A stretch of DNA of 61,080 nt, the filler included. It is 4 parts of 4 records of this genome, joined end to end, with 100 filler letters (N's around TTAATTAATTAA, not from the genome) between each part and the next. Parts side by side here need not be neighbours in the genome. Positions count along the whole stretch, not along the records: positions 45,093 to 61,080 come from DRR378314_663; 3 more parts are not named here. One strand, 5' to 3'. The notes beneath the pieces are model-generated. The model worked only from the letters and a program-made list of their open reading frames with translations. It made no database searches and was not told the DNA's origin. How positions within the stretch are numbered: the stretch's first letter is position 1; the number at the start of each line of letters is the position of its first letter. The position numbers and the translations under genes were made by a program. This document shows positions 12,874 to 61,080 of this stretch, in pieces.

Positions 12874-13644
12874 GCCAGTGCCCGCCGGAGACGAGAGGCA
12901 GACGGCGCTGTGGAGCGCGCGCACTGCAGGAAACGCGGGAAAAGCGCGGATGCCGCGACGCGAGCGCCACAAATTTCCAAGTATACCCATTACAAGGATA
13001 TATGATTCAGGAAACGATCTGCCGAAGCGAGCTGGTCGCCATCCTCCCCATGTCCGGCGTTTCGCATTCTGTGCACGAGTTTCTCTACCGCAGGTACTTA
13101 CGAGCCAGTCTGCATGTACAATCATATGACTTCGGCACGGGAATCGGAAAATGGGATTTCTGCAAGGGGCACGAAGCAGCGACGCGCACACTTCGCCAGG
13201 TGTCCCCTTGGGCTCGTCCTCAGCGCGTAGCGTCCGGATTGCGAGGAGCGCACGCTACTTCTCACGCGTCGACATGGTCGCTGTTCTTGGTCTGATTCTG
13301 TGACACTCCCTACAAGCTTTGTACCTGGTGCAGTATACTATTTTCTTTCGCTCATGTATGCGCCATTTCGCTCGCTCCAAGCTAGCTGCTGTCGCTGTGA
13401 CGAAGAATAGGCAGGCCTACAAAAGCAGTGCGGTGCGGTTGCATGATCGGTTGACAAAGTAGGGCGAGAATACGAACAACCATGAGCTTGGTAACCGCAC
13501 GATTGACGTGCTCTGCAGCGCTTGCGGCGACTGCGCGAGATAGTCGACGCGCCGCACGCGGTCGTTTCACCAGCGGGGCACGGCGTGTGTAAGAGAGGAA
13601 GAGAGAAAGAAAAACAGAGCGTGACACCCTTCAGGTATACACCG

Positions 13645-45092: not shown

Positions 45093-45120
45093 CCGGGTCA
45101 GTTCTCAATGAAAACCAACA
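45093..45120. mobile_element. Terminal inverted repeat of a probable IS21-family insertion sequence
   Basis: Reverse complement TGTTGGTTTTCATTGAGAACTGACCCGG fits the TG...AAnTGACCC pattern of IS21-family ends. It places an in-frame TGA (45109-45111) just before the dctM PPVG codons. Confidence 0.65.
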
Positions 45121-45273
45121 CCGCCGGTTGGCACAACGCTGTTTGTGTCTGTCGCCATTGAACGTGTTCCCATGGGCAAGGTCGTGATGCAATTGCTGCC
45201 CTTCTATCTGGTCGCAATTCTTGTGCTGATGTTGGTCAGCTTTGTACCCGGCCTGACCACGATCTTCCTCTGA
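45121..45273 (+). pseudogene. dctM: 3' fragment of TRAP transporter large permease DctM, apparently IS-interrupted
   Basis: PPVGTTLFVSVAIERVPMGKVVMQLLPFYLVAILVLMLVSFVPGLTTIFL* is a typical DctM C-terminus. The frame is closed by a stop four codons upstream. Confidence 0.75.
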
Positions 45274-45312
45274 AATCCCATGCAAGCAAACACCCAACCA
45301 TTGAGGGCCCAA

Positions 45313-46161
45313 ATGGCTATTACTGCGACGACACATCTCTCAAATATCTCACTGGAGGAACGCGCGCGGCGCATCCGCGTGCATGGTCTGAAAATGGCCC
45401 GCGTCGTCGGCAAAGCCTATGTCGGACAGGTGCTTGCAATGGCTGATGTCTTATCTGTGCTGTACTTCCATGCTTTGAACTATCGTTCGGAAGATCCGGA
45501 ATGGGATGGCAGAGATCGGTTTTTCCTGTCGCATGGCCACATGGGCATTGCCCTTTATGGGGCACTCATTGAGGCGGGTATTTTGCCAGAAGATGAGCTT
45601 GAAACCTATGGCCAGGACGACAGTCGTTTCCCGATTTCCATCCAGCCAGCCTATACGCCGGGCATTGAAATTGCGAGCGGCACACTGGGTCACGGGCTTG
45701 GCATCGCGGTTGGGTCTGCGCTGACTTTACGCCGTCGTGGCAAGCCTTCGTTCATGTATTGTATGACGTCCGATGGCGAAATCAATGAAGGCTCTACCTG
45801 GGAGGCCGCCCTAAACGCAGGCAATCACAAACTCAAAAACCTGATTGTGGTGATGGACAATAACGACATGCAGAATGACGGGCCATCCTCGGAGGTCATG
45901 AACCTGGAACCCATTCAGGATAAATGGGCGGCCTTTGGGTTCGAAGTCTGGCGCGTGGATGGGAATAACATTCCGGCCCTGTGCCAAGCATTTGATGAGG
46001 CAAGGAATTCCAAAGCTGACAAGCCGCGTATCATCATCTGTGACAATCAGATGGGCAAAGGTGTCTCCTTTGTCGAACACCGTGAAAAGCAGGTTCATTT
46101 TATGCCTTGGTCCGCCGCAGATCTTGAACGGGCTCTGGCAGAATTGGGAGACAACAAATGA
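45313..46161 (+). CDS. Split transketolase-like protein, N-terminal (ThDP-binding) subunit, copy 1
   Basis: DRFFLSHGH, GTLGHGLG, SDGEINEGSTWEA...DNN. ATG 45313 has a GAGG RBS; alternative start 45280. Confidence 0.9.
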   Translation: MAITATTHLSNISLEERARRIRVHGLKMARVVGKAYVGQVLAMADVLSVLYFHALNYRSEDPEWDGRDRFFLSHGHMGIALYGALIEAGILPEDELETYGQDDSRFPISIQPAYTPGIEIASGTLGHGLGIAVGSALTLRRRGKPSFMYCMTSDGEINEGSTWEAALNAGNHKLKNLIVVMDNNDMQNDGPSSEVMNLEPIQDKWAAFGFEVWRVDGNNIPALCQAFDEARNSKADKPRIIICDNQMGKGVSFVEHREKQVHFMPWSAADLERALAELGDNK

Positions 46162-47186
46162 GACCAGCAAGAACTCAATCCCGGTACGAGGCGCGTGTTC
46201 CCGGTTCCGGTTTATCGACCCTATCAATGCTTGAATTTGAATCCGAAGGGGGTTTGCCCATGCAATCGGCCCCGTTTGGCAATGCCTTGTGCAAAGTTGC
46301 GCGAGAGAACCCGGATGTGATGGCAGTTTCGGCCGATCTATCCAACGTCACTGACATCTCTCCGTTTATCAAGGAATTCCCTGACCGCTATGTTCAGGTC
46401 GGCATTTGCGAACAGGCGCTGGCAACCGTTTCGGCAGGCATGGCGCGCGAGGGAGATACGGTTTTTGCCTCGACTTATTGTGCCTTTGCGGCGCGACGGG
46501 CGTATGACTTCATCTATCAGGCAATTGCTGAAGAACAGCTAAACGTCAAAATCATCGGCGCGGTTCCGGGCCTTAGCACCGGATATGGGCCAACGCATAT
46601 GGCCCCCGAAGACATCATGATCTTCCGGGGCATCCCTGATATGACCATTATCGACCCCTGTGATGGGCTGGACACAGAACAGGCTACCTACGCCATCGCC
46701 GCATACAAAGGTCCGGTATATATGCGTATCCCACGCGTTCAGGCCCCGGTGATACTCGACCAATTCGACTACGAATTCGAGCTTGGCAAAGCCAAAATGC
46801 TTCAGGACGGCAAGGATGTTCTGTTCATTTCGACTGGTTTGATGACCACCCGTTGCATCCTTGCGGCACGCCAACTCGCCAAGGACGGCGTAGAGTGCGC
46901 AATTCTGCATGTTCCCACCCTCAAGCCGCTGGATACCAAAACCATCGTTGAGGCCTGTCGCAAAACAGGGCGTCTTGTTGTGGTCGCCGAAAATCACACC
47001 ATTCAGGGTGGTCTGGGAGAAGCAACGGCCATGGCATTGATCTCACAAGGTGTCATGCCGTCGGGCTTCCGACAAATCGCCATTCCGGATGAATTCACCG
47101 ATGCAGGCACACTTCCGACACTTCACAATCGATATGGCCTGTCGGTTCCCGAAGTCTGCAATTCTGTCAGATCCTGGCTGAAATAG
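46158..47186 (+). CDS. Split transketolase-like protein, C-terminal (pyrimidine-binding) subunit, copy 1
   Basis: SADL, GICEQ, RRAYDF, GYGPTH, KPLD, AENH...GGLG; ATGA overlap with the upstream gene. Confidence 0.9.
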   Translation: MRPARTQSRYEARVPGSGLSTLSMLEFESEGGLPMQSAPFGNALCKVARENPDVMAVSADLSNVTDISPFIKEFPDRYVQVGICEQALATVSAGMAREGDTVFASTYCAFAARRAYDFIYQAIAEEQLNVKIIGAVPGLSTGYGPTHMAPEDIMIFRGIPDMTIIDPCDGLDTEQATYAIAAYKGPVYMRIPRVQAPVILDQFDYEFELGKAKMLQDGKDVLFISTGLMTTRCILAARQLAKDGVECAILHVPTLKPLDTKTIVEACRKTGRLVVVAENHTIQGGLGEATAMALISQGVMPSGFRQIAIPDEFTDAGTLPTLHNRYGLSVPEVCNSVRSWLK

Positions 47187-47221
47187 CCGGTCAAAACGCC
47201 CCCGAGATAGAAAGTACGAGT

Positions 47222-48070
47222 ATGACCACAGATGAAAATTCACGTTCAAACGTTAGCCTGAAAGAACGTGCCACTCGCATCCGCCGCTATGCCCTGCGCA
47301 TGGGCGAAGTTCAGGGACAAGGGTACATTGCCCAGGCTCTGGGTTTGGCGGATGTCTTGGCGGTGATATATTTTCACGCCGCCAGAATGCGGCCCGAAGA
47401 CCCGGAATGGGAAGGCCGAGACCGAGTGTACCTATCGATGGGACACTATGCGATTGCACTATACGCGGCCCTAATCGAGGCCGGAATTCTGCCCGAAAAC
47501 GAATTGGAAACCTATGGCAGCGACGACAGCCGGATGCCAATGTCGGGCATGGCGGCCTACACACCGGGCATGGAGATTACGGGCGGATCGCTGGGTCACG
47601 GGCTGGGCATCGCAGTAGGTGGTGCGATGGGCCTGAAGCGCAAGAAATCTGACAGTTGGATCATCAATATGTTGTCCGACGGCGAGCTTGACGAGGGTTC
47701 AACCTGGGAAGCGGCAATGGCGGCAACCCATCACAAGCTCGATAACCTGATCGCTGTGGTCGATAACAACAACCAGCAGGCCGACGGCGCATCACAGGAG
47801 ATGCTGGGAACAGAGCCGATCCACGAAAAATTCGCCGCCTTTGGCTGGCACGTACAGCGCGTCGACGGCAACGATATCGACGCCGTCGTTGCCGCATTCG
47901 ACGGTGCCAAGGCGGGAGAAATAGCTAAACCGCATGTCATTATCTGCGACACCAAAATGGCCTGTGGCGTGCCGTTTCTCGAAGCGCGGGAGAAAAACCA
48001 TTTCTTGCGTGTTGAGCCCCAAGAGTGGGCCGAGGCCATCAAAATTATCGACGAAGGACGCATTTCATGA
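47222..48070 (+). CDS. Split transketolase-like protein, N-terminal subunit, copy 2
   Basis: DRVYLSMGH, GSLGHGLG, SDGELDEGSTWEA...DNN. Confidence 0.92.
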   Translation: MTTDENSRSNVSLKERATRIRRYALRMGEVQGQGYIAQALGLADVLAVIYFHAARMRPEDPEWEGRDRVYLSMGHYAIALYAALIEAGILPENELETYGSDDSRMPMSGMAAYTPGMEITGGSLGHGLGIAVGGAMGLKRKKSDSWIINMLSDGELDEGSTWEAAMAATHHKLDNLIAVVDNNNQQADGASQEMLGTEPIHEKFAAFGWHVQRVDGNDIDAVVAAFDGAKAGEIAKPHVIICDTKMACGVPFLEAREKNHFLRVEPQEWAEAIKIIDEGRIS

Positions 48071-49101
48071 GCGCTCAAAGATTTGGAAAATATGATCCTC
48101 GCCCTCCTGTTCCCGCAGGTCAGCGTCTGAAAACTTCCGCCATGATCGCTTCATTGGCTGCCGACGGCATGCCAGTGATTGCCGCCCCTTTTGGACAGGC
48201 TCTTAACGAATTGGCTCAATCTAACGACAAGATTGTCGGTCTTAGTGCGGATCTGGCGAAATACACAGATATCCACGTTTTCCGCGATAAATACCCAGAC
48301 CGTTTCTATCAAATGGGCATGGCCGAACAGGTTCTGGTGTCAGCAGCGGCGGGATTGGCCCGCGAGGGGTTTCAATCTTGGGCGACGACCTATGCCGTCT
48401 TTGCTGCCCGCCGCGCCTATGACTTCATTTGCATGGCAATCGCCGAAGAGAACCTGGACGTTAAAATCATTGGCGGCCTGCCCGGTTTGACCACAGGCTA
48501 TGGCCCCAGCCATCAGGCGACAGAAGATCTCGCAATCTTTCGCGGCATGCCCAACATGACGATCCTCGACCCTTGTTGTGCAACGGATATCATGCAGGCA
48601 ACCAAGGCACTGTCCGCCTATAAGGGGCCTGCCTACATGCGACTGCTGCGTGGTAATGTACCCGATGTACCGGGCGAATACGGGTATCAGTTCGAACTTG
48701 GCAAGGCCAAGATGATCCGGGACGGTGTGGATGTTCTCTATATCTCGACGGGTCTTATGACCATGCGGGTTCTGGAGGCAGCCAAAAAGCTGGCAAAAGA
48801 CGGCGTAGATTGTGCTGTGCTGCATGTGCCTACGATCAAGCCGTTTGACGCAGCAACAATTGCCGAAGCCGCCGGGAAGACAGGACGCCTGGTCATCACG
48901 GCAGAGAACCACACGATTATTGGTGGACTTGGCGAGGCAGTCGCAGCCGAGCTTATGCGGCGCGGTGTGCACCCCACTTTCCGCCAAATCGCCTGCCCGG
49001 ATGAGTTTCTGGATGCTGGTGCCTTGCCGAACCTGCACGAGCGATATGGTTTGTCGGAAGATGCAGTCATTCGTCAAACGAAAAACTGGCTCAGCGAATA
49101 A
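48067..49101 (+). CDS. Split transketolase-like protein, C-terminal subunit, copy 2
   Basis: SADLAKYTD, GMAEQ, GYGPSHQATED, AENH; ATG 48067 in an ATGA overlap. Confidence 0.92.
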   Translation: MSAQRFGKYDPRPPVPAGQRLKTSAMIASLAADGMPVIAAPFGQALNELAQSNDKIVGLSADLAKYTDIHVFRDKYPDRFYQMGMAEQVLVSAAAGLAREGFQSWATTYAVFAARRAYDFICMAIAEENLDVKIIGGLPGLTTGYGPSHQATEDLAIFRGMPNMTILDPCCATDIMQATKALSAYKGPAYMRLLRGNVPDVPGEYGYQFELGKAKMIRDGVDVLYISTGLMTMRVLEAAKKLAKDGVDCAVLHVPTIKPFDAATIAEAAGKTGRLVITAENHTIIGGLGEAVAAELMRRGVHPTFRQIACPDEFLDAGALPNLHERYGLSEDAVIRQTKNWLSE

Positions 49102-49116
49102 TCTGGAAAGTATCAA

Positions 49117-50073
49117 ATGACAAAAATAGTATTTCTTGACCGCGAAACCATTGGTCCTGGTGTCATACTCAATCGGCCTCAGACGGATCACGAGTGGGTA
49201 GAGTATCAGGCGACAGCGGAAGCGCAGGTGTTAGAGCGGGCGAAAGACGCCGATGTGATCATAACCAACAAAGTGCCCATCGGCGAAACCACTCTTGCGG
49301 GCCTGCCCAACTTGAAAATGATCGCCATCGCTGCAACCGGTTATGACGTTGTGGATGTAGCGGCATGTTCCAATCGCGGTATCATCGTGTCAAACGTGCG
49401 CGGCTATGCCATCAACACCGTTCCCGAACACGCCTTTGCACTGATCTTCGCCTTACAACGCAACATCGTGGGATACCGACAGGATGTGATTGACGGTGCA
49501 TGGCAAAAATCCGGTCAGTTCTGTTTCTTTACCCATCCCATTCGTGACCTGTCCGGGGCGCGACTTGGCATACTCGGCGAAGGCGTAATCGGGCAGTCGG
49601 TGGCACGGATAGGCCGGGCGCTTGGGATGGATGTTGTGTTTGCCTCGCATAAGGGTGTGGAGGGTCTCGGGCCACTTTACACACCTTGGGATGAGGTCAT
49701 GGAGACCAGCGATGTTCTGACCCTGCATGCTCCGCTAATGCCCGCCACACGCAATATGATCTCAACCCCGGAATTTGAGGCCATGAAGCGGAAACCCATC
49801 ATTATCAACACGTCGCGTGGGGGGCTTGTAGATGAAGCCGCCATGGTTGATGCGCTGGATCGCGGATTGATTTCCGGCATCGGTTTTGATGTGCTGACTT
49901 CAGAACCCCCTCAACCTGACAATCCGATTTTGCAAATCCTTGATCGCCCTAATGTGATCGTCACCCCGCATGTCGCCTGGGCATCAACTGAAGCACGGCA
50001 AACGCTTTGGGATCAAGTAGTGCACCATATTGATAACTTCCTGACCGGGCAGCCCTCCAATGTTGTTGGCTGA
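49117..50073 (+). CDS. D-2-hydroxyacid dehydrogenase (hydroxypyruvate reductase/glycerate dehydrogenase, HprA-like)
   Basis: IVFLDR, ITNKV, ATGYD, GEGVIG, LHAPL, INTSRGGLVDE, DVLTSEPP, TPHVAW. Confidence 0.88.
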   Translation: MTKIVFLDRETIGPGVILNRPQTDHEWVEYQATAEAQVLERAKDADVIITNKVPIGETTLAGLPNLKMIAIAATGYDVVDVAACSNRGIIVSNVRGYAINTVPEHAFALIFALQRNIVGYRQDVIDGAWQKSGQFCFFTHPIRDLSGARLGILGEGVIGQSVARIGRALGMDVVFASHKGVEGLGPLYTPWDEVMETSDVLTLHAPLMPATRNMISTPEFEAMKRKPIIINTSRGGLVDEAAMVDALDRGLISGIGFDVLTSEPPQPDNPILQILDRPNVIVTPHVAWASTEARQTLWDQVVHHIDNFLTGQPSNVVG

Positions 50074-51319
50074 AGAAAAACTGCGCGCCCTGTTTAACGC
50101 TGCACTTGAAGCGGCGGAGCCAAAGCGGATCCTTGCCAAACATCTGCCCGCAAGACCCAGTGGCCGCACAATCGTTTTGGGTGCGGGCAAAGCGTCAGCC
50201 GCGATGGCCGCGGCGGTTGAGACGCATTGGGATGGCCCTTTGGAAGGGTTGATCATTACACGCTATGGCCACAGTTGCCCAACCCGGCACCTGCGTATTG
50301 TCGAGGCGGCGCATCCGGTACCAGATGAAGCGGGACGCAAAGCCACGGCAGAACTGATGGCACTAGCCCAATCCGCCGGGCCTGATGATCTGGTGTTGTG
50401 TCTTATCTCGGGTGGCGGATCGTCACTGCTTAACGCCGCTCCCACGGGGATCACGTTCGAAGAAAAACAATCCATCAACAAGGCGCTTTTAAAATCCGGG
50501 GCACCGATTGCAGAGATCAACTGTGTCCGCAAACATCTGTCCGACATAAAAGGGGGCAAACTTGCGGCGCTGGCAGCACCGGCAAAGGTGGTCACCCTGT
50601 TGATCTCGGATGTGCCCGGAGATGACCCGGCCACTATCGCATCGGGCCCGACCGTGGCCGATTTGTCCACGAGTCAAGACGCTTTGGCAGTACTCAAACG
50701 CTATGACGTGACTGTTTCCAATACCATTCTGCAACATTTGGAAAACGCAGCATGCGAAACTCCAAAAGCGGAGGATCAGATATTCGCAAACTGCGAAACG
50801 AGAATGATCGCCACGCCGCAAATATCACTGGAAGCTGCCGCAGCCAGAGCCATGGAAATGGGGTTAACCGCCCATATCCTGAGCGACCGGATCGAAGGTG
50901 AGGCGCGGGATACGGCAAAGGCTTTGGGCGCAATCGCACTGCAGGTGGCACAACATGGCCAGCCTTTCAGCAAACCGTGCGTTCTGCTTTCTGGCGGAGA
51001 GACCACTGTGACCGTACGGGGGTCCGGGCGCGGCGGCCGCAATGTAGAGTTCTTGTTGGCCCTCGCCCACGTTCTTGAAGGTGCACCTGGGATCTATGCC
51101 CTTTCCTGTGACACTGATGGTGTAGACGGGCTGGAGGAAATTGCTGGTGCTGTGATCGGCCCACAGACTTTGAAGAACGCCAGAGATCGGGGGATGAACG
51201 CACGCGCCATGCTGGACAATAATGATGGCCACAGCTTGTTCGAAGCACTTGAGGCTCAGGTTATCACTGGTCCCACTTTGACCAATGTAAACGATTTTCG
51301 TGCGATCCTTATTGAGTGA
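50060..51319 (+). CDS. Glycerate 2-kinase, MOFRL/TtuD family
   Basis: GAGKAS, EAAHPVPD, LISGGGSSL, IKGGKLA, SDVPGDD..IASGPT, GGETTV, DTDGVDG, TGPTLTNVND. Confidence 0.92.
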   Translation: MLLAEEKLRALFNAALEAAEPKRILAKHLPARPSGRTIVLGAGKASAAMAAAVETHWDGPLEGLIITRYGHSCPTRHLRIVEAAHPVPDEAGRKATAELMALAQSAGPDDLVLCLISGGGSSLLNAAPTGITFEEKQSINKALLKSGAPIAEINCVRKHLSDIKGGKLAALAAPAKVVTLLISDVPGDDPATIASGPTVADLSTSQDALAVLKRYDVTVSNTILQHLENAACETPKAEDQIFANCETRMIATPQISLEAAAARAMEMGLTAHILSDRIEGEARDTAKALGAIALQVAQHGQPFSKPCVLLSGGETTVTVRGSGRGGRNVEFLLALAHVLEGAPGIYALSCDTDGVDGLEEIAGAVIGPQTLKNARDRGMNARAMLDNNDGHSLFEALEAQVITGPTLTNVNDFRAILIE

Positions 51320-51743
51320 GTTCGAATTTCCGGGACGGTGTCATGGCATTATTGCACAAACCGGGTTTGGTAGGCTCCGGCGTGCCGAAACCGGGCGCAA
51401 TCCCGCTGTCACGCTGGATGTTCCACTACCCAATTCAAATCCACGCCCTCTCCTGACCACATGCGATTTTACTCGCACGACACAAGATAATGACCCTGTC
51501 ACGGCACACTGCAGGCTCTACCGCCCCCTTTTGGCCCAATATACTGTCCGCACCCTCGACCGGTCACTGCGGTCATATTCCCCTCCACCGCCACATCAAT
51601 ATGTCGCAAGATTTGAAACAATCCGTTGCTCACATAGAAAAGGCCGTACGCAACAGGATCAGTCAGGATCGCCCGCAGGCATGTTTTATAAGCTAACATA
51701 CATCATGCGCCCCGGCCCTCCTGTCGCGACCAGGCCCGTGGGG

Positions 51744-52538
51744 TCAGCGCTGGTAAATCACCGGGAACCAATCTTCGCGCAGAATCTGGCCCGGCGTCAT
51801 GTCGTGACCCGGAAACGGTGGCGAAGTCGGACCGGGACGCTCGACATAACGCGCGTCATCACCCACAAGGCGCAATGAAAACGCACGGCGGCGCGTGTCG
51901 GTCGTATTGCCCCGTGCGCCATGCAAAGTGCCGTAGTTGAAGGCCACCGCGTCGCCCGGCTCCATTTCCCATTCGCGGATTGCCATACCCTCGGCGTCCG
52001 GGTCCGGCACTGGCATATATTCATCCTCATTCGGATAGAAACTGGTCTCTGCCAACCAGCGGGTGGGCAACACCGGTTTCTCCCATGCATGGCTTCCTGC
52101 CACACACCGCAGGCTGGCCCCCTTAACAGTATCCATCGGCGACCAGAAACTGACGTTCTGCATCCCATCGACAAAGTAATAAGGGCCATCCTGATGCCAC
52201 GGTGTTGGCTTGGATGTTCCCGGCTCTTTGACAAGCACATGATCGTGGAATACTTGCACACGCTTTGATTGCATCAGATCAGCAGCCACTTCGCCCGCGT
52301 CGGAGTTTCGGATCACATGTTCGAATTCACTGATACGGTTCCAGTTGCAATAATCATCGAAAAACCGCCCGCCTTCGCCTTCTTTGAGGTTCTCGGCGGC
52401 ATAGGGTCCAGGTTCATCCATATTGCGTTCAATACCCGCGCGGATCGTCTCGACATGATCGGCAAACAGCCCTTTGATCAACACAACGCCATCGCGCTGG
52501 AAGCTATTGATATCGCCTTGAGTGACAAGTGGGTGCAT
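51744..52538 (-). CDS. PhyH-family Fe(II)/2-oxoglutarate dioxygenase
   Basis: TPWHQD (HxD), distal LHG and RRAFS. ATG 52538 has a GAGGA RBS. Confidence 0.9.
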   Translation of the reverse strand: MHPLVTQGDINSFQRDGVVLIKGLFADHVETIRAGIERNMDEPGPYAAENLKEGEGGRFFDDYCNWNRISEFEHVIRNSDAGEVAADLMQSKRVQVFHDHVLVKEPGTSKPTPWHQDGPYYFVDGMQNVSFWSPMDTVKGASLRCVAGSHAWEKPVLPTRWLAETSFYPNEDEYMPVPDPDAEGMAIREWEMEPGDAVAFNYGTLHGARGNTTDTRRRAFSLRLVGDDARYVERPGPTSPPFPGHDMTPGQILREDWFPVIYQR

Positions 52539-52589
52539 GTGTTCGTCCTCCGTGTTGGGAACAGGCATAAGCAACAAAAGATTTAACTT

Positions 52590-52618
52590 CTAATAATATT
52601 TACTCATACTATTATTAG
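52590..52618. promoter_or_regulatory. Inverted repeat in the phyH-lysR divergent promoter; candidate LysR site
   Basis: CTAATAATA-11 nt-TATTATTAG, a perfect 9-bp inverted repeat in an AT-rich 84-bp spacer. Confidence 0.5.
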
Positions 52619-52622
52619 GCCA

Positions 52623-53570
52623 ATGCTATACCTTACTCTTCGTCAATATGAATATATTGTCGGCGTTGCCGACACAGGCAGCCTGACCAAAGCTGCTGCG
52701 CAACTGAATGTCTCGCAACCCTCGCTTTCGGTTGCGATCACACGGGTCGAACAGCACCTCAAACGCACGATTTTCCTGCGCGGAAAAGGGTCTGCAATTG
52801 AAATTACCCCTTTCGGTCACCGTCTGATCGCCAAGGCGCGGAGTCTCTTGGCGTTAGGGGCTGAGATTGAACAGGATCACGACGCGGCGCAGACATGGGT
52901 GCTGGGTTGTTTTGCAGATATCGCGCCATGGTACATGGCCCCCGTACTCAAGAAACTTGGTGACCGTTTTCCAGCGCTGACATTTGTAGGGCGCGAAGGG
53001 CGCTTTGCTGATCTGGGGCGCGATCTGGCGGAAGGAAAGATAGATTTTGCGATTTCCTATGATGTCGGATTCGAGGGAAATTTCACGCGGCGCAAACTGG
53101 TTGATATCGCGCCAGTGGCCTTTGTCGCCACGGACCATCCTTTAGCGCAGGCAAACACGCTGGAACTCTCTGACCTAAAAGATATGCCTCTGATCCTGTT
53201 CAACGAGGATCTGTCGGAAGGGTTCATGCGGGATTTGTTTACGCGAATAAATCTGACACCTGTGATTAAGCAAAAGGTGGCATCGCTGGAAATGATGCGC
53301 TCTCTTGCGGCAAATGGTGTGGGCGTTGGCATCAGCTATTCCCGCCCACCCGGGCACCTGAGCTACGATGGCAAACCTCTTGTGACGCTGCCAATTGCCA
53401 CGCCAGAGGCCAAAACAGAAATTGCCCTGATCTGGTCAGGCTTGCGAGCAGATTCCTCTGATTTCGACGCCATCCTTGATGTGCTTACACCTCCAGTGGT
53501 TGATGCTGTAAGCTCTGAGAGAGCGGGCCTCAGGCGCATTCGTCAAGGATTTGGTCCAGAACAGCGATGA
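52623..53570 (+). CDS. LysR-family transcriptional regulator
   Basis: TLRQYEY...GSLTKAAAQLNVSQPSLSVAI HTH plus substrate-binding domain; divergent from phyH. Confidence 0.95.
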   Translation: MLYLTLRQYEYIVGVADTGSLTKAAAQLNVSQPSLSVAITRVEQHLKRTIFLRGKGSAIEITPFGHRLIAKARSLLALGAEIEQDHDAAQTWVLGCFADIAPWYMAPVLKKLGDRFPALTFVGREGRFADLGRDLAEGKIDFAISYDVGFEGNFTRRKLVDIAPVAFVATDHPLAQANTLELSDLKDMPLILFNEDLSEGFMRDLFTRINLTPVIKQKVASLEMMRSLAANGVGVGISYSRPPGHLSYDGKPLVTLPIATPEAKTEIALIWSGLRADSSDFDAILDVLTPPVVDAVSSERAGLRRIRQGFGPEQR

Positions 53571-56535
53571 TCATCTCGGCATCCTCTGCCTCAATTGTCA
53601 GCGGAGGTCGGATTTTGAGGATATTGTCTTTTGGCCCCTCACTGCCGATCAGAATGCGATGGTCGCGCATGCGGTTCTTGACGTAGGCGCAAATCTCCGT
53701 CGCTTCGGCTCCATCAGGCCGGATCAGCTCCACCCCCAGAAACAACCCCATTCCCCGCACGTCGCCCACGCAGCCATGCTTGGCTTCCAGCATTCTAAGA
53801 CCGGCCATCAATTGACCGCCGATCAGCCGTGCGTTTTCCTGCAAGCCTTCGTCGTCCACGATCTGCAAAACCTCGCGACCTATCCGGCATGACAGGGTCG
53901 ATCCCCCGAAGGTCGAGAAAAACTCGATTCCATTGTCAAAGCTCTCTGCGATTTCCTTGGTTGTGACGAGCACCCCCATCGGATGCCCGTTGCCAATCGG
54001 TTTGCCCAGGACAACGATGTCGGGCCGCACCTCCTGGTGTTCAAACCCGAAATAGTATTCACCCAAACGTCCAAGCCCCGTCTGGACTTCGTCCGCGATA
54101 CAGATGCCACCTGCGGCGCGGATCTTGGCGTAGACCGCTGACAAATACCCTTTGGGCGGAATGATCTGACCACCAACCGAAGGGAAGGTTTCTGCGATGA
54201 ACCCTGCAACCCCCTGTCCTTTTTGGTGAAGGGAAGCGATCGCCGGATCGACAAGATCCGCGAATTTCTGCGCTCGGTCAGGGTCATTACGCCGGAAAGT
54301 TCCACGGTAATCATCTGCAACCTCAACCAGTTCGACCCAATCGGCCTGCCCCACGCCATTCGGCTTGTTGAACTTGTAGGCGGAGATATCGACTGCACCT
54401 GTGGTACTCCCGTGATAGCCATGGTCGGGCGTGATCATGCCCTTGGCACCGGTGTGGGCGCGCGCCAGCCGCAGGGCCAGCTCGTTCGCTTCGGACCCGG
54501 AATTCACGAAAAAACACACCTGCAAATGATCAGGCATCTTCGACAGAATTTTGTCGGCAAACGCGGTCTGCGCAGGATGCAGATAGCGGGTGTTGGAGTT
54601 GATCCGCTTGAGTTGATCCGCCGCTTCGGCCTGAATGCGCGGATGGGCATGGCCCACATGTGGTACGTTGTTATATGCATCCAAATAGGGACGGCCCCAT
54701 TCGTCAAATAGGTGATGCCTCCAGCCACGCAACAACATCACCGGGTCATCATAGGTCAGGCTCAGATTGCCACCGAAATGCGCATCCCGGCCCTGCCTGA
54801 CCCCTGCCTTGTCGGTCGGGAAATAGCACAGCTTGTCGTCGGGCAGATTCAGCATTGCCGCCGGATTGGGGCAGATCGCGCACCACAAATACATCTCGTC
54901 GGGATCACCCACACCCGGCCAATCGGCCTCAATCCCTTCGGTGGTCAGCGCCAGTTGGAAATGCACATGCGGTGCCCACCCACCGTTCATCGAAGGATCG
55001 CCGAGACGGCAGAACTCTTCGCCTTTTTCAATCATCTGTCCTACCTTCAGGCGGTCCAGAAACTCAGGGTCTAGATGACCATAGAGGGTGAAAAACGGAT
55101 CGCCCGCCGGGGTCTCATGGCGCAGAATGATCACCCCGCCATAGTCCAGATGCCCCGCGCGATATTCTGCGATGAACACCTCGCCGCGCAGGGGTGCAAA
55201 CATGGGCGTGCCCGCAGGCGCAAATACATCTACGGCCAGATGCACCGTGCGGCGATCGCTGGCCTTCCATGGCCCTTTGCGAAAGGCGGGTTCCGCATAG
55301 ATCAGACGCGGTTCATGATAGTAGCCGAGCCACATGCGCCCCTGATCCTCGAACTCCTCTCCCACTCTTGCGGCTTCCTCCAGCGGCAAGTGAAACGGGT
55401 TCTGCGGCCAGGTTGATTCCTCAACAGACAGAGACCCCAGTGGCGCATTCGACAGGTCACACCCCATCAGGGGCGAGAAATTTCCGCGTTCCTGTTCAAG
55501 CCATGCCGCCACCCGGTCGGCCCCATCAACCACCGGCAGGCCACAAGCCGCCCGCAACCTTGCCGACAGCAAACCACCATGCAGTGAGCATTCTTCCAGA
55601 AACCGCCAGGCCGGTGCCTGCGAAATGGTGACATAGGGGTCATCGGGATTTTCAATTGCCATCAATGTGGAATTCACCACGCTCACCGCCAGCCGCATGC
55701 GTAAGAGCGGCCAGATCATGTCGACCTCTTCCACTGTGAGCGGGTTGGCATGATGATAGCCGGCGACCAAGGCGGCAAGAGCGGCTTCAGGGCTCGGGTG
55801 ATCCAGCACGATGTAAGCTGCAGCAATCGCCAGGTCGCAGATCCGAGGGGCCGCACACATGTCGCCCAGATCGATCAGGCCGGAGACGCGGCGCGGCGCG
55901 TTCAAGGTGCCTTCGATCAGGATGTTATAGTCATTGGCATCGTTGTGGATCGCCTGACGCGGCAACCTCTCCAGCGCCGGTTTCAGCACCGCAAATTGGC
56001 GATGAATGTCCTCTATAATCTGACGTCGGGCCAGATCGGCAATGCAGCCGGTTTGATCTTTGATCCAACCGGCGCGCATCAGGTCCCATTTGAAATCACG
56101 CTCCAGCCCGTCATGCTGGAAATCAGCCAAAGCCAGCGCCGCACCACCGAGCACCTGCCCGACCTCATGGATCAGCGCATCACTTTTCGGTGCCACATGT
56201 GCAAAACATTGCCCCGGCAGTTGACTTAGAACCCAGGCAAGACGCTCTGCACCTGTCTCGTCTTTCAGGGAAATCAGCCGCCCGCCCTGCACCGCGCGTA
56301 CAACAACCGGACAAGGCAACTGCGGCTGTCTTGCGGTGATATGCTCGAATGCCTTGACCTGCATGTCCACCAACCACGTTTCGCAGCCCGCGCGCATGAC
56401 CTTGAGAATGTACCCCTTGCCATCATCGGCTTTTGCCAGAAAGTTAAGATCATATTCACCATCCAGCTGGCTCAGCTGTGCTGTAATGCCCCAATGTTGC
56501 TCTAACGCCGTCCGCCAATGCTGGATGTTCCGCAT
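53530..56535 (-). CDS. Three-domain fusion: APH/hydroxylysine-kinase-like + M23/LytM + class III PLP aminotransferase/phospho-lyase
   Basis: Kinase: GEYDLNF, LKV, HNDANDYN, IDLGD. M23: HLAVD, YGHL, PHVHFQ. PLP domain: YLDAYNNVPHVGH, NSGSEAN, ADEVQTGLGR, LGKPIGNG, STFGG. Start at ATG 56535 (1001 aa). Confidence 0.9.
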   Translation of the reverse strand: MRNIQHWRTALEQHWGITAQLSQLDGEYDLNFLAKADDGKGYILKVMRAGCETWLVDMQVKAFEHITARQPQLPCPVVVRAVQGGRLISLKDETGAERLAWVLSQLPGQCFAHVAPKSDALIHEVGQVLGGAALALADFQHDGLERDFKWDLMRAGWIKDQTGCIADLARRQIIEDIHRQFAVLKPALERLPRQAIHNDANDYNILIEGTLNAPRRVSGLIDLGDMCAAPRICDLAIAAAYIVLDHPSPEAALAALVAGYHHANPLTVEEVDMIWPLLRMRLAVSVVNSTLMAIENPDDPYVTISQAPAWRFLEECSLHGGLLSARLRAACGLPVVDGADRVAAWLEQERGNFSPLMGCDLSNAPLGSLSVEESTWPQNPFHLPLEEAARVGEEFEDQGRMWLGYYHEPRLIYAEPAFRKGPWKASDRRTVHLAVDVFAPAGTPMFAPLRGEVFIAEYRAGHLDYGGVIILRHETPAGDPFFTLYGHLDPEFLDRLKVGQMIEKGEEFCRLGDPSMNGGWAPHVHFQLALTTEGIEADWPGVGDPDEMYLWCAICPNPAAMLNLPDDKLCYFPTDKAGVRQGRDAHFGGNLSLTYDDPVMLLRGWRHHLFDEWGRPYLDAYNNVPHVGHAHPRIQAEAADQLKRINSNTRYLHPAQTAFADKILSKMPDHLQVCFFVNSGSEANELALRLARAHTGAKGMITPDHGYHGSTTGAVDISAYKFNKPNGVGQADWVELVEVADDYRGTFRRNDPDRAQKFADLVDPAIASLHQKGQGVAGFIAETFPSVGGQIIPPKGYLSAVYAKIRAAGGICIADEVQTGLGRLGEYYFGFEHQEVRPDIVVLGKPIGNGHPMGVLVTTKEIAESFDNGIEFFSTFGGSTLSCRIGREVLQIVDDEGLQENARLIGGQLMAGLRMLEAKHGCVGDVRGMGLFLGVELIRPDGAEATEICAYVKNRMRDHRILIGSEGPKDNILKIRPPLTIEAEDAEMIIAVLDQILDECA

Positions 56536-56576
56536 GAAATTGTCCCTGGTTTTTGAAATGCTGAAATGCGGGCCGC

Positions 56577-57278
56577 CTAGAGTTGCGTGCGCAGTTTGTA
56601 CCCCGGTAAAAACAACAGCCTGACCTTCGTGACCGCTGCGGCATTGTCCCAAGTCACCCTGTCAATTGCAAACAAGGCACTAAGAGGTGCGACCCCCAAC
56701 ACTTCCGCGTCCCCTTGATCAGCCTGCACCGCCGAGAAGGAAATATCCCCGTGTGTGTAAGGCGCATGTTCTATCAACCATTCATTGGCGCTCAGCACGT
56801 CGAATGGTTCTGCCGCCGCGTCCGGGACGATGGCCGTGTTGATCCACCTGTCCTCAACGGCATAGGCCGCATCATCGGCCAAGTGCAAAGCCCGCACATG
56901 CAACAGCTTGTCTTGGGCTCTGGTCTTCATCGTGCCGCTGACACTGACAGGTGGCACAGCAATTCTGCGCGTGATCAGTTGATAGCCATATTTCGCGCCG
57001 TGTTCCTCGACCTCGTGACGGATCACCGCGATATCTATCGTTGCCTTGGCAACAGGTTGCGCTGCGACGCGTGTCCCGGCCTTGCGTCTGCGGTCCAGCA
57101 AACCACTTTCAGCCAAGGACCGCAGCGCCCGGTTCACTGTGGATCTTGCGCAGCCGAACTCGATTGCCAGATCAGCCTCATTGGGGATCAGCTCACCCGG
57201 CGGCCATTCACGGGCATGGATACGGCGCAAGACTTCGCTCTGCACGCTTTGCCAGTTCCGAAACGTGGGTGTGTTCAC
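56577..57278 (-). CDS. hutC: Histidine utilization repressor (GntR/UTRA)
   Basis: WPPGELIPNEADLAIEFGCARSTVNRALRSL HTH plus UTRA domain; GTG start overlaps the hutF stop; hut context. Confidence 0.88.
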   Translation of the reverse strand: MNTPTFRNWQSVQSEVLRRIHAREWPPGELIPNEADLAIEFGCARSTVNRALRSLAESGLLDRRRKAGTRVAAQPVAKATIDIAVIRHEVEEHGAKYGYQLITRRIAVPPVSVSGTMKTRAQDKLLHVRALHLADDAAYAVEDRWINTAIVPDAAAEPFDVLSANEWLIEHAPYTHGDISFSAVQADQGDAEVLGVAPLSALFAIDRVTWDNAAAVTKVRLLFLPGYKLRTQL

Positions 57279-58645
57279 AAGGCGTCTCTCAATGCGTCGA
57301 TTGCGCGTTTGTAGGCAGCGACAATATCCGCCCGTTGTACATGCTGGCCGTGCTGTACCATATGGCGTCCTGCCGACCAAACATCTTTCACCAATCCGTC
57401 ATCTCCTGCGAAAATCCAGGCATCAAGTGCCGTGTCACCCTGCCTGCCCCACATGTGTTCAGAGCCTGTGTCGAGGGCCAGAAAATCAGCCCAACACCCG
57501 GCTTCGATACGGCCCGTTTCACGTCCCGATGCCTGCGCGCCACCTTGCAGCATCCCGCCATACATCCGGCGGCCGGTCGACTTGTCCGGTGATGCCAATG
57601 CCGCGCGCGTGCCATCACGCAGGCGCTGTGAATAATCCAGCGTGCGCAACTCCTCACTCAACGAGATGCGGATGTTGCTGTCCGACCCAATGGCAAATGC
57701 GCCACCGTGATCCACCCAGCGCACCGCGTCGAATATCCCATCCCCTAGACTACTTTCGGTGATCGGACACAGACCGGCAACCGCGCCGGAACGGGCCAGT
57801 GCAATCGTCTCATTGGGCGTCATCTGAGTGCAGTGGATCAGGCACCAGCGTTGATCCAGTTGCAAGTTATCTAGCGCCCAGGTCACAGGCCGTGCCCCCC
57901 AGTGTTCCTCTACCTCAGCGACCTCTGCACGTTGTTCGGCCAAGTGCATATGGATCGGCCCGGCAGGAAATGCCGTGCTGTACCCTCTCAGATCTTCAAT
58001 TCCGACCGCGCGCAACGAATGGGGCGCAACACCGATGTTACTGTCAGCAGACGCCTGTTTGATACTGACCTCCGCCGCACCGTGAAGGACCTGAAACTGC
58101 TCGAAGGTGTTGCCAAACCGGATTTGCCCTGCGGTCAGCGCGCGCTGATCACAACCGCCGAACTGATAGTGCACCGGCAACAGGCACAGCCCCATGCCAG
58201 TCTGATCCGATGCCGCAACAATACACGCAGAGGTTTCAGCGATATTGTCATAGGCAACGCCGCCGGGTTGGTGATGCAAATAGTGGAATTCAACCGAGGC
58301 ACCATAGCCTGCCTCAAGCATCTCCATCTGCACAAAAGCAGTGATCGCTTCAATATGGTCAGGCGTCAGGCGGTCGAGAAACCGAAACATCAGCTGCCGC
58401 CAAGTCCAGAAGCTGTCACTTGTATCAGGGCCACGCCCCTCTGTCAGACCGGCCATCGCCCGCTGAAACGCATGGCTGTGCACATTCACCGGCGCGGGCA
58501 ACAGCATTGAAACTTGCGTGGCCTGATCTGGTACGGGCGCACCACTTTGCACCTCCTTGATGCGGCCCTGCCCATCAATCTCGACGATCACCTTTTTCGC
58601 CCAACCGCTGGGCAATAAGGCTGTCTCGGCCCAAATCCTCTGCAT
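57275..58645 (-). CDS. hutF: Formimidoylglutamate deiminase
   Basis: NVHSHAFQRAMAGL, FWTWR, EFHYLHH, APHSLRA, HLAEQ, CPITE, GSDS. Confidence 0.96.
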   Translation of the reverse strand: MQRIWAETALLPSGWAKKVIVEIDGQGRIKEVQSGAPVPDQATQVSMLLPAPVNVHSHAFQRAMAGLTEGRGPDTSDSFWTWRQLMFRFLDRLTPDHIEAITAFVQMEMLEAGYGASVEFHYLHHQPGGVAYDNIAETSACIVAASDQTGMGLCLLPVHYQFGGCDQRALTAGQIRFGNTFEQFQVLHGAAEVSIKQASADSNIGVAPHSLRAVGIEDLRGYSTAFPAGPIHMHLAEQRAEVAEVEEHWGARPVTWALDNLQLDQRWCLIHCTQMTPNETIALARSGAVAGLCPITESSLGDGIFDAVRWVDHGGAFAIGSDSNIRISLSEELRTLDYSQRLRDGTRAALASPDKSTGRRMYGGMLQGGAQASGRETGRIEAGCWADFLALDTGSEHMWGRQGDTALDAWIFAGDDGLVKDVWSAGRHMVQHGQHVQRADIVAAYKRAIDALRDAL

Positions 58646-58657
58646 GGCTCACTCCGC

Positions 58658-58686
58658 TTGACATATTATTATGTACGCGCATAAAA
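58658..58686. promoter_or_regulatory. hutI promoter with overlapping degenerate HutC operator
   Basis: TTGACA at 58658-58663. TTATGTACGCGCATAA at 58669-58684 resembles the TGTA-N2-TACA HutC box, with symmetric TTATG/CATAA arms. Confidence 0.55.
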
Positions 58687-58720
58687 ACATTAAGCGCACT
58701 AATTTACAAGTGAGTCGACC

Positions 58721-59914
58721 ATGCTTCTAACGAACGCCACAATCGTGACGCTTCACGAGGACAAGGACTACGGTCTGATCGAAGAGGGTGCGATTGCCCT
58801 TGATGAAGAGCGTATCGCCTGGGTCGGCCCGGCGGCGGATACCCCCGACATCTACAGTACCGCCCAAACGCACGATTTAGGCGGGCGGCTTGTGACGCCT
58901 GCGCTGATCGACTGCCACACACATACAGTTTTTGGCGGCAACCGCGCGACGGAATTCGAACTGCGGTTGAATGGTGCAAGCTATGAAGAAGTTGCACGCG
59001 CGGGTGGCGGTATTGTTTCAACTGTCAAAGCGACACGCGCTGCTTCCGAGGAGGCATTGCTGGCAGATGCCCTTACCCGCGTCGATGCGCTGATTGCCGA
59101 AGGTGTCACGCTGATTGAGGTCAAATCAGGCTACGGTCTGAATCAAGATACAGAGCTGAAGATGCTGCGCGTTGCACGGAAAATCGCGCAGATGCGCCCG
59201 GTGGACATCCGCACAAGTTTCCTTGGTGCCCATGCTGTTCCGCCCGAATTCAAAGGTGAACCGGATGCCTATATTGACGATGTTTGCATCCCAACGCTGC
59301 GCGCGGCACATGCCGAAGGTTTGGTCGATGCGGTAGACGGGTTTTGCGAAGGCATCGCCTTTAACACCGCGCAAATTGCCCGCGTCTTTGACGTGGCGGT
59401 CGAACTCGACCTGCCGGTCAAGCTGCACGCAGAGCAGCTGTCAAACATCGGCGGCACACAATTGGCCGCAAAATACGGCGCGCTGAGTGCGGACCATGTG
59501 GAATATGCTACTGACGCCGATGCACAGGCCTTGGCTGCTTCCGGCACGGTTGCAGTTGTGCTGCCCGGCGCGTTCTACACGCTGCGCGAAACGCAGGCGC
59601 CGCCAGTCCACTCCTTCCGCGCCCACCACGTGCCGATGGCACTGGCGACCGATTGCAACCCCGGTTCATCCCCTCTGGCCTCGCCCTTGCTTGCCATGAA
59701 CATGGCCTGCACCCTGTTTCGGATGACTCCGCTGGAAGCATTGCTTGGCATGACAGCCCATGCAGCGGCGGCCTTGGGTGATACAAACCGGGGCCGCATC
59801 GCCGTAGGCGCACAAGCTGATCTGTGCGTCTGGGATGCTGGGCATCCATCCGAACTTGCCTATCGCATCGGGTTTAACCCGCTTCACAATCGCATCTTCA
59901 AGGGGTCGCTATGA
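58721..59914 (+). CDS. hutI: Imidazolonepropionase
   Basis: [53 protein letters not shown]. Confidence 0.97.
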
Positions 59915-61080
59915 CAATCACACTCACGCCGGGTGCGGCAACACTGGCGCAGCTTCATGACATCTGGGCCAATGGTCATGCTGTCGTCCTCGACCCCTCC
60001 TCTCACGCGGGGATCGCTGCCGCACAGGCATTGGTGACAAAGGCTGCGAATGGAGAAACGGCGGTCTACGGCGTCAACACCGGCTTTGGCAAACTCGCCA
60101 GCGTCAAGATCGCCGCCAAAGACGTGGCAACACTACAGCGCAACCTGATCCTGTCCCACTGCTGTGGCGTGGGCGACGCTCTGGACGAGGCAACGACACG
60201 GCTGATGATGGTGCTGAAGCTGCTGTCGCTTGGGCGCGGTGCCTCTGGTGTTGCCATGACCACTGTCGAGGTCATTCAGGATATGCTTGGAAAAGGTGTC
60301 ACACCTGTGATCCCCAGCCAAGGTTCGGTGGGTGCCTCTGGTGATCTGGCCCCGCTCGCCCATATGGCCGCGGCGATGATCGGAGAAGGTGAAGCCACCT
60401 ATGAAGGGACGCGCATGCCAGCACGTGAGGCGCTGGCCAAAGCAGGGATCACACCCATCGTGCTGGGCGCAAAAGAGGGGCTGGCCCTGATCAACGGCAC
60501 GCAATTCTCCACGGCTTGTGCGCTCGTTGGCCTCTGGGGCGCATGGCGCAATGCCGCGACTTGCGTGCTGACCTGCGCGCTGTCGACCGATGCAATCATG
60601 GGGTCCACCGCGCCGTTGCAGGACGCCATACACACCCTGCGCGGTCATGCCGGTCAGATCGCGGTGGCCCGCGCCCAGCGCGCACTTATGGATGGATCGC
60701 AGATCCGTGAAAGCCATGTCGATGGCGACACCCGCGTGCAGGACCCCTACTGCATCCGCTGCCAGCCACAGGTGACAGGTGCCGCAATGGATTTGCTGCA
60801 TTTCGCGGCCCGCACGCTTGAGATCGAGGCAAATGCCGTCACAGATAATCCGTTGGTGTTGGTAGATGACGATCTGATCGTTTCGGGCGGGAATTTCCAC
60901 GCGGAACCGGTTGGTTTTGCCGCTGACCAGATCGCCGTTGCAATTTCTGAGATTGGCGCAATTGCACAGCGGCGCGTTGCCTTGATGGTTGATCCGACCC
61001 TCAGCTTTGATCTGCCGCCCTTCCTGACGCCCGATCCCGGTTTGAATTCCGGCCTGATGATCGCCGAGGTCACCACGGCC
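59911..61080 (+). CDS. hutH: Histidine ammonia-lyase (3'-truncated by the window end)
   Basis: [24 protein letters not shown] motif [45 protein letters not shown] overlap with hutI. Confidence 0.97.

Follow-up and report, generated by a model that had tools for sequence, protein, structure and literature searches.

Introduction

Three human enzymes set the frame for this article: HYKK, a 5-hydroxylysine kinase, PHYKPL, a 5-phosphohydroxylysine phospho-lyase, and ETNPPL, an ethanolamine-phosphate phospho-lyase. In vertebrates, enzymes of this kind degrade hydroxylysine and phosphoethanolamine. In 2012, Veiga-da-Cunha and colleagues were reportedly led by a kinase-lyase gene fusion to the identification of HYKK, the vertebrate hydroxylysine kinase, and of two ammoniophospholyases. 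A bacterial fusion of this kind is the subject of the present work. It lies in a stretch of DNA of 61,080 nucleotides, filler included (hereafter the window), whose positions 45,093–61,080 come from DRR378314_663. The interval studied, 51744–56535, holds the fusion gene beside a gene for a PhyH-family Fe(II)/2-oxoglutarate dioxygenase (hereafter PhyH) and that of a divergent LysR-family regulator. Should these neighbors be read as one pathway? The first-pass annotation held that they should: PhyH would hydroxylate an amine, such as lysine, a diamine or histamine, beside its amino group, the kinase would phosphorylate the product, the pyridoxal phosphate (PLP) domain would carry out the elimination, and LysR would control the whole. 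Here it is argued instead, with a probability of about 0.65, that the interval is made of two unrelated units, neighbors by chance in one Sulfitobacter-like lineage, and that the fusion is a self-contained amino-alcohol kinase/phospho-lyase.

The human enzymes (HYKK with PHYKPL, and ETNPPL) share with the fusion both of its folds and a logic of two successive steps. The fusion differs from them in that its domains form a single chain, to which an M23 domain is added. On the bacterial side there is also the Arthrobacter phospholyase (5g4i/5g4j, under the name “putative aminotransferase class III”), a phospho-lyase of class III PLP type; it shares the same motifs and scores 304 bits, but unlike the fusion it is a stand-alone protein of 446 aa, without kinase or M23 domain. 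As for hydroxylation followed by PLP-dependent elimination, the nearest known logic is that of the pair PhnY*/PbfA, in which a PhnY*-type hydroxylase works with PbfA. PbfA, the (R)-1-hydroxy-2-aminoethylphosphonate ammonia-lyase, is presented as a class III lyase in PMC8154272. It needs no kinase and is constantly found in phosphonate clusters. The fusion, by contrast, keeps no neighbor throughout, and reaches 187.5 bits against the NCBIfam PbfA model, for a cut-off of 525. The identification of hydroxylysine kinase and ammoniophospholyase is cited as an example of gene fusion in the accessible text of PMC12138971 and PMC5714238. With this argument already in the literature, a kinase-lyase fusion as such is therefore known.

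The Fusion Protein

The open reading frame (ORF) of the fusion spans 53530–56652. The alignment with its NCBIfam model opens only at ORF residue 40, and the start was therefore placed at the ATG at 56535, which coincides with the end coordinate of the first-pass annotation and gives a protein of 1001 aa, whose numbering is used below for motifs and domain boundaries. The protein and its parts are as follows:

53530..56535, minus strand: whole fusion, 1001 aa (NCBIfam NF004799)
55516..56535, minus strand: fusion residues 1–340, APH-fold small-molecule kinase domain (Pfam APH, E 5.6e-21)
54856..55275, minus strand: fusion residues 421–560, Peptidase_M23 domain, LytM-type (PF01551, E 1.2e-12)
53530..54735, minus strand: fusion residues 601–1001, class III PLP domain, phospho-lyase clade (Aminotran_3, E 4.4e-65)

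The Pfam boundaries proper are 25–265 for APH, 431–530 for Peptidase_M23, and 608–997 for Aminotran_3. The first-pass annotation had described a fusion of kinase and PLP domains, and both are indeed present; the third domain, Peptidase_M23, had been overlooked. With 1540.5 bits against NF004799 (PRK06148, “hypothetical protein,” about 1015 aa; cut-off 1128) and ORF residues 40–1038 aligned on model positions 10–1010, the fusion is a full-length, ordinary member of the known PRK06148 family. At least 602 relatives exist in the genome collection. In a family sample of 201 Rhodobacteraceae genomes (200 genera, one each), 25 carry it at full length, 23 of them over the cut-off and two (G166 and G057) just below it, while the copy in G055 has an internal stop. 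Conservation was assessed on 82 sequences, namely the fusion of the window and 81 orthologues of 50–98% identity.

The PLP domain is the part that can be placed most firmly. It aligns end to end with human ETNPPL (6tor, 399 bits, E 2.4e-118) and with the Arthrobacter phospholyase (5g4i, E 2.1e-89), while the best solved chain that is not a lyase, dialkylglycine decarboxylase, scores 157 bits, and racemases and transaminases no higher. Its motifs NNVPHVGH (residues 622–629) and GKPIGNG (844–850) align with their counterparts in both phospho-lyases, 6tor sharing with the fusion the patterns NNVxHVGH and GKPxGNGHP, which we take to be diagnostic of the ETNPPL/PHYKPL clade. Both motifs, the PLP lysine K845, and the cofactor aspartate D815 are invariant in 82/82 sequences. 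The earlier assignment of this domain to the ETNPPL/PHYKPL type thus stood up to the comparison, at 399 and 304 bits against at most 157 for other enzymes. No solved PHYKPL chain is present among the matches of the domain, so that its likeness to ETNPPL does not rank that enzyme above PHYKPL.

On the kinase side, residues H197, D199, N204, D222, and D225, which make up the HxDxxxxN loop and the metal-binding DxGD, are kept in 82/82 sequences, and K45 is invariant or nearly so. When the domain is compared with separate NCBIfam models, the nearest, type II homoserine kinase, reaches 51 bits for a cut-off of 271. A close relative of the domain, P0003, carries the source-given name “hydroxylysine kinase”; outside the family, the best match so named is P0120 (27% identical, E 3e-20).

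These likenesses support the predicted joining of a kinase to a PLP domain of the ETNPPL/PHYKPL type, and from them we infer both its probable chemistry, that of a kinase followed by a phospho-lyase, and the class of its substrate. In the first step, the N-terminal APH-fold domain would phosphorylate the hydroxyl group of a vicinal amino alcohol with ATP. In the second, the C-terminal PLP domain would eliminate phosphate and ammonia to yield a carbonyl compound. The M23 domain occupies the center of the molecule, between kinase and lyase.

Two Probably Separate Units

The other features of the locus are these:

51744..52538, minus strand: PhyH-family Fe(II)/2-oxoglutarate dioxygenase, 264 aa (Pfam PF05721, E 9.3e-27)
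52591..52617, no strand assigned: LysR-type inverted repeat, pattern TAATAATA-N11-TATTATTA, in the PhyH-LysR spacer
52623..53570, plus strand: LysR-family regulator (Pfam HTH_1 and LysR_substrate)
56577..57380, minus strand: hutC repressor (TIGR02018, 253.6 bits, cut-off 220)
57275..58645, minus strand: hutF, formimidoylglutamate deiminase (NF006684, 637 bits, cut-off 525)

The ORF of PhyH covers 51744–52577 on the minus strand, with a probable start at 52538. PhyH and LysR are divergent with 84 bp between them, and LysR and the fusion are convergent, their 3′ ends overlapping by 41 bp. Beyond the fusion, HutC, HutF, HutI, and HutH span 56577–61080, with hutI and hutH on the opposite strand; the hutC ORF as listed starts within hutF, and its real start may be further in. 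PhyH, the divergent LysR, the adjoining fusion, and the hut context are all confirmed by Pfam and NCBIfam models at the places given in the first-pass annotation.

That these genes form one module is another matter. Synteny was followed through tblastn and genome-search coordinates in three sets: 41 genomes of relatives, nine of them with a full-length or nearly full-length fusion; the family sample; and 75 fetched fusion loci, flanked by as much as 10 kb in either direction. All nine fusion genomes among the relatives hold a PhyH orthologue, adjacent to the fusion in 2/9, G001 (98% identical) and G004 (89% identical). Fusion and PhyH lie on different contigs or replicons in G006, G002, G025, G017, G027, and G030, and the fusion of G005 is on a 2.8-kb contig that does not allow adjacency to be judged. 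Conversely, PhyH (64–83% identity) is present without a full-length fusion in G003, G008, G009, G010, G012, G013, G018, G021, and G022, of the same genus, and in G031, of the same order. In the family sample PhyH adjoins the fusion in 2/25 genomes, G001 and G176. Among the fetched loci it is adjacent in 0/75 and occurs within the 10-kb flanks in 2/75, at 8.5 kb in L101 and, in L066, past the hut genes at the very edge of the locus; 59 of these loci have full flanks, and absence weighs less in the other 16 because contig ends cut them short. Overall, adjacency is confined to the window, G001, G004, and G176. The synteny expected of a module made of PhyH and the fusion, whose absence the first-pass annotation had itself named as a refutation, has therefore largely failed to appear.

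The units are also found apart beside the very same genes. G009 has the order PhyH-LysR-hutC-hutF-hutI-hutH without the fusion, L068 has hutF-hutC-fusion without LysR or PhyH, and both units stand beside hut genes in the window, G001, G004, and G176. Being found apart and together next to the same neighbors, the PhyH-LysR pair and the fusion assort independently; with their adjacency limited to a handful of close relatives, they appear to be separate units.

Beyond PhyH, positions 45280–51319 (plus strand) carry two tandem split transketolase pairs (N and C halves), 55–60% identical between pairs, followed on the same strand by a 2-hydroxyacid dehydrogenase and then a DUF4147/MOFRL glycerate-2-kinase-like gene. 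This block is kept in G001 and not in G004. A 192-aa ORF at 51300–51878 (plus strand), antisense over the 3′ end of PhyH and without a Pfam match, is probably not a gene.

The PhyH-LysR Cassette

The first unit would consist of the PhyH dioxygenase, its own divergent LysR, and a candidate operator of the T-N11-A type. This LysR-type box is a perfect inverted repeat and the sole exact match in the 61-kb window, where 0.02 would be expected by chance; a second match, with three mismatches, overlaps the main box 3 bp away. Five other PhyH-LysR pairs, among them pairs without a nearby fusion, keep its core in the corresponding spacer: those of G004, G006 (two copies), G002, and G009. A search for the box across the window found it in the PhyH-LysR spacer and not at the fusion.

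The two-gene cassette recurs in G001, G004, G176, G006 (two copies), G002, and G009, and it may be mobile. The two copies in G006 (L019 and L020), 84–85% identical to that of the window, lie in different contexts, one of them by a STAND NTPase gene. Orthologues of PhyH with 59–98% identity exist in 96/201 family genomes. PhyH has a plausible HxD...H triad (H115, D117, and H206), and its ESM Atlas matches are exclusively clusters of the “phytanoyl-CoA dioxygenase family.” The best solved relative is MysH (9c9n, E 1.6e-27 over residues 21–250), an Fe/2-oxoglutarate dioxygenase of mycosporine-like amino acid biosynthesis. This relationship is distant, so that a shared substrate cannot be read from it, and no mys genes are seen around PhyH in the window.

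PhyH has other neighbors elsewhere. In six Sulfitobacter genomes it adjoins an irr-like Fur-family regulator and fabA-fabB-fabI. In G009, G017, G078, G124, G195, G118, G075, and G032, hut genes are found less than about 10 kb away from an orthologue (70–82% identical) or a paralogue (42–45%) of PhyH, mostly at about 1–7 kb (loci of these cases: L022, L024, and L110–L114). The link between PhyH and hut is more frequent than that between PhyH and the fusion, yet it concerns a minority of genomes; it hints at an association of this PhyH clade with histidine-related catabolism.

Alternative Explanations

The alternative that survives best, improbable as it is, holds that the fusion was recruited to the histidine-utilization regulon and acts on an amino alcohol related to histidine, for instance histidinol, being read through from hutF-hutC. 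In the window, hutC immediately precedes the fusion in the same orientation, with a gap of 41 nt in which a terminator-like site was looked for and not found, and a weak AGGGA precedes the ATG of the fusion. From strand and gap, the fusion may be co-transcribed with hutF-hutC. The order hutC-fusion is found again in G001, G004, G176, and L068, as well as in L066 with one gene between, and the distance between fusion and hutI is 12 kb in G137 and 23 kb in G231. The adjacent cases, however, all belong to one fusion group, 82–98% identical to that of the window, and hut genes are lacking in the flanks of 73/75 fetched loci. In the preferred reading, that of two independent units, the fusion gene may be read together with the hutF-hutC genes that precede it on the same strand.

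The three-step oxidative deamination with PhyH as its first enzyme is very improbable. In its favor are the adjacency of the genes in the window, G001, G004, and G176, their co-occurrence (see below), and L101, where a PhyH orthologue is accompanied by a PhyH-family fragment close to the fusion. Against it stand the adjacency of 2/25 and 0/75, and the separate occurrence of the two units beside the same hut genes. The role given to LysR as regulator of the module is not supported either: the box is confined to 52591–52617, and the fusion, convergent with LysR, has none. Finally, the solved relatives of PhyH (MysH, EvdO2, and SnoK) are not amine or lysine hydroxylases, and its orthologues adjoin the irr-like Fur and fabA-fabB genes mentioned above. 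As to the fragment in L101, a locus from an Amylibacter metagenome-assembled genome, it is a truncated PhyH-family ORF 172 bp from the fusion, beside a transposase-type helix-turn-helix gene (13181–13828 and 13951–14331), and it falls outside the clade of the window's PhyH.

Least probable of all is that the PLP domain belongs to the ordinary transaminases of class III, with a kinase domain that serves another purpose such as regulation or antibiotic modification. Most class III enzymes are transaminases (PMC8154272), and the sister NCBIfam model PRK06149 is named “aminotransferase.” Against this option, which the first-pass annotation had itself raised as a test, the phospho-lyases lead the best chain that is not a lyase by at least 240 bits, kinase and lyase are also encoded by adjoining separate genes in the same genus, and this kind of fusion is the one that reportedly led to HYKK and PHYKPL, work cited as a gene-fusion example in PMC12138971.

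Several observations nevertheless weigh against the reading of two unrelated units with a self-contained amino-alcohol kinase/phospho-lyase. The kinase domain has no close relative among solved structures, the best being APH(3′) at E 0.02, and a literature search for PRK06148 and PRK06149 found neither a mention of them nor a biochemical datum on bacterial members. The arrangement of PhyH and fusion is kept across three genomes at 89–98% identity, so that some selection for it is possible. Lastly, PhyH is present in 20/25 fusion genomes against 76/176 others (Fisher p 0.0006, in genomes whose kinship makes them not independent). This co-occurrence, proposed earlier as a check on the module, is matched by that of hutI, a control with no proposed link, which is found in 22/25 fusion genomes against 89/176 others (hand count). 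With hutI enriched alike, the enrichment of PhyH may be that of any catabolic gene of larger, versatile genomes.

The Fusion in Other Genomes

Clustering of the ORFs around 81 fusion loci gave no neighbor family present in more than 19 of them, and the recurrent neighbors track taxonomy. In Ruegeria, a 3-hydroxyisobutyrate-dehydrogenase-like gene lies upstream of the fusion and a HAD hydrolase gene downstream; in Leisingera and Phaeobacter, the neighbors are ferrochelatase and YkuD genes. The fusion of L062, from a record titled Nocardioides marinus (an actinobacterium), is 62% identical to that of the window, and could reflect gene transfer or a mislabeled or contaminating contig; the neighbor families of this locus (ABC ATPase, FGase, and isochorismatase) also occur near the fusion in Sulfitobacter aestuariivivens.

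Two further arrangements are these:

L100:2779–15953, same strand: operon of up to twelve genes around the fusion (also L093, L095, and L098)
L118:3286–8288 and L119:1924–8267, same genus: split kinase-lyase operons

The first is a compact series of as many as twelve genes on one strand, found in several genera (L093, which is G006, L095, L098, and L100). Listed in order, its first members encode a VC1184-family class V PLP enzyme, an ABC transporter of the Lys/Arg/Orn type, a HisN-like phosphatase (250 bits for a cut-off of 275), and an OCD-like protein. A PRK07324 aminotransferase related to GntC/VioD (537 bits for a cut-off of 476) comes before the fusion, after which stand genes for a cyclodeaminase, a Thr/Ser-dehydratase-like protein, and a DoeB-like deacylase; two genes of the series are of the OCD family. 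L093 is without the OCD-like gene, and L095 and L098 are without the deacylase. Such a context hints, and does no more than hint, that the substrate is a hydroxylated amino acid of the basic kind, which would agree with hydroxylysine, and the operon may be a pathway for such a compound. Ectoine catabolism was considered for this operon and rejected, with EutB at 220–254 bits (cut-off 413), EutC at 249 (472), and DoeB at 248 (403).

In the second arrangement, an APH kinase (361–379 aa) and a class III PLP enzyme (437–470 aa) are encoded by adjoining genes on one strand. Such split operons are found in G004 and G024, and also in G035, which is of another family in the same class. They differ from the fusion in having no M23 domain, and their PLP part is about 40% identical to its own. 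Those of G004 and G024 open with a histone-deacetylase-type amidohydrolase and a thiamine pyrophosphate enzyme, and that of G024 has an M20 peptidase as well. Next to the split operon of G024 lies a GntR/FCD regulator; one is found in G035 too, with kinase and lyase directly after it.

The Central M23 Domain

The M23 domain, which sits between the kinase and PLP domains, scores 48.3 bits for a Pfam gathering threshold of 28.7. H432, H487, and H525 are kept in 81/82 sequences, and D436 and H523 in 82/82; these residues form the HxxxD, the third His, and the HxH, presumably the zinc-binding and catalytic set. The proportion of columns as conserved as this set is 30% in the M23 region, 15% in the kinase region, and 42% in the PLP region, and the set is also retained in partial homologues of 36–40% identity. 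An AlphaFold2 model of residues 381–600 has a mean pLDDT of 81.5, with a core above 90. When it is submitted to Foldseek, lysostaphin, LytM, EnpA, and ShyA are returned with a probability of 1.00, the best match being lysostaphin 4lxc (E 3.9e-07). The separate kinase and lyase genes of the same genus are without this domain, and a literature search found no mention of an M23 domain in these kinase-lyase proteins.

The domain is apparently intracellular, lodged within a metabolic enzyme with its zinc-site residues intact. What could it be doing there? One possibility is an active zinc hydrolase whose task would be to release the amino alcohol from conjugates of amide or peptide type, such as collagen peptides that contain hydroxylysine, or N-acyl amino alcohols. 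This suggestion is tentative and on balance rather unlikely. It is put forward because the catalytic set is strictly kept, because the split kinase-lyase operons, in place of an M23 domain, carry other amidohydrolases (a histone-deacetylase-type enzyme and, in one of them, an M20 enzyme), and because the twelve-gene operon, known from four loci, contains a DoeB-like deacylase together with a Lys/Arg/Orn-type transporter. If true, the fusion would be a hydrolase-kinase-lyase line in a single chain, and its M23 domain an intracellular one working on a metabolite rather than on the cell wall.

Biological Significance

The kinase-lyase part of the fusion was already known, and the pathway starting with PhyH is not supported. 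As the proposed route of oxidative deamination does not stand, the locus is no basis for annotating PhyH clades or amine catabolism. The interest that is left lies in a widespread enzyme family with a strictly conserved M23 domain inside it. To find the substrate of the fusion would fill a gap in our understanding of how amino alcohols serve marine bacteria as a source of nitrogen.

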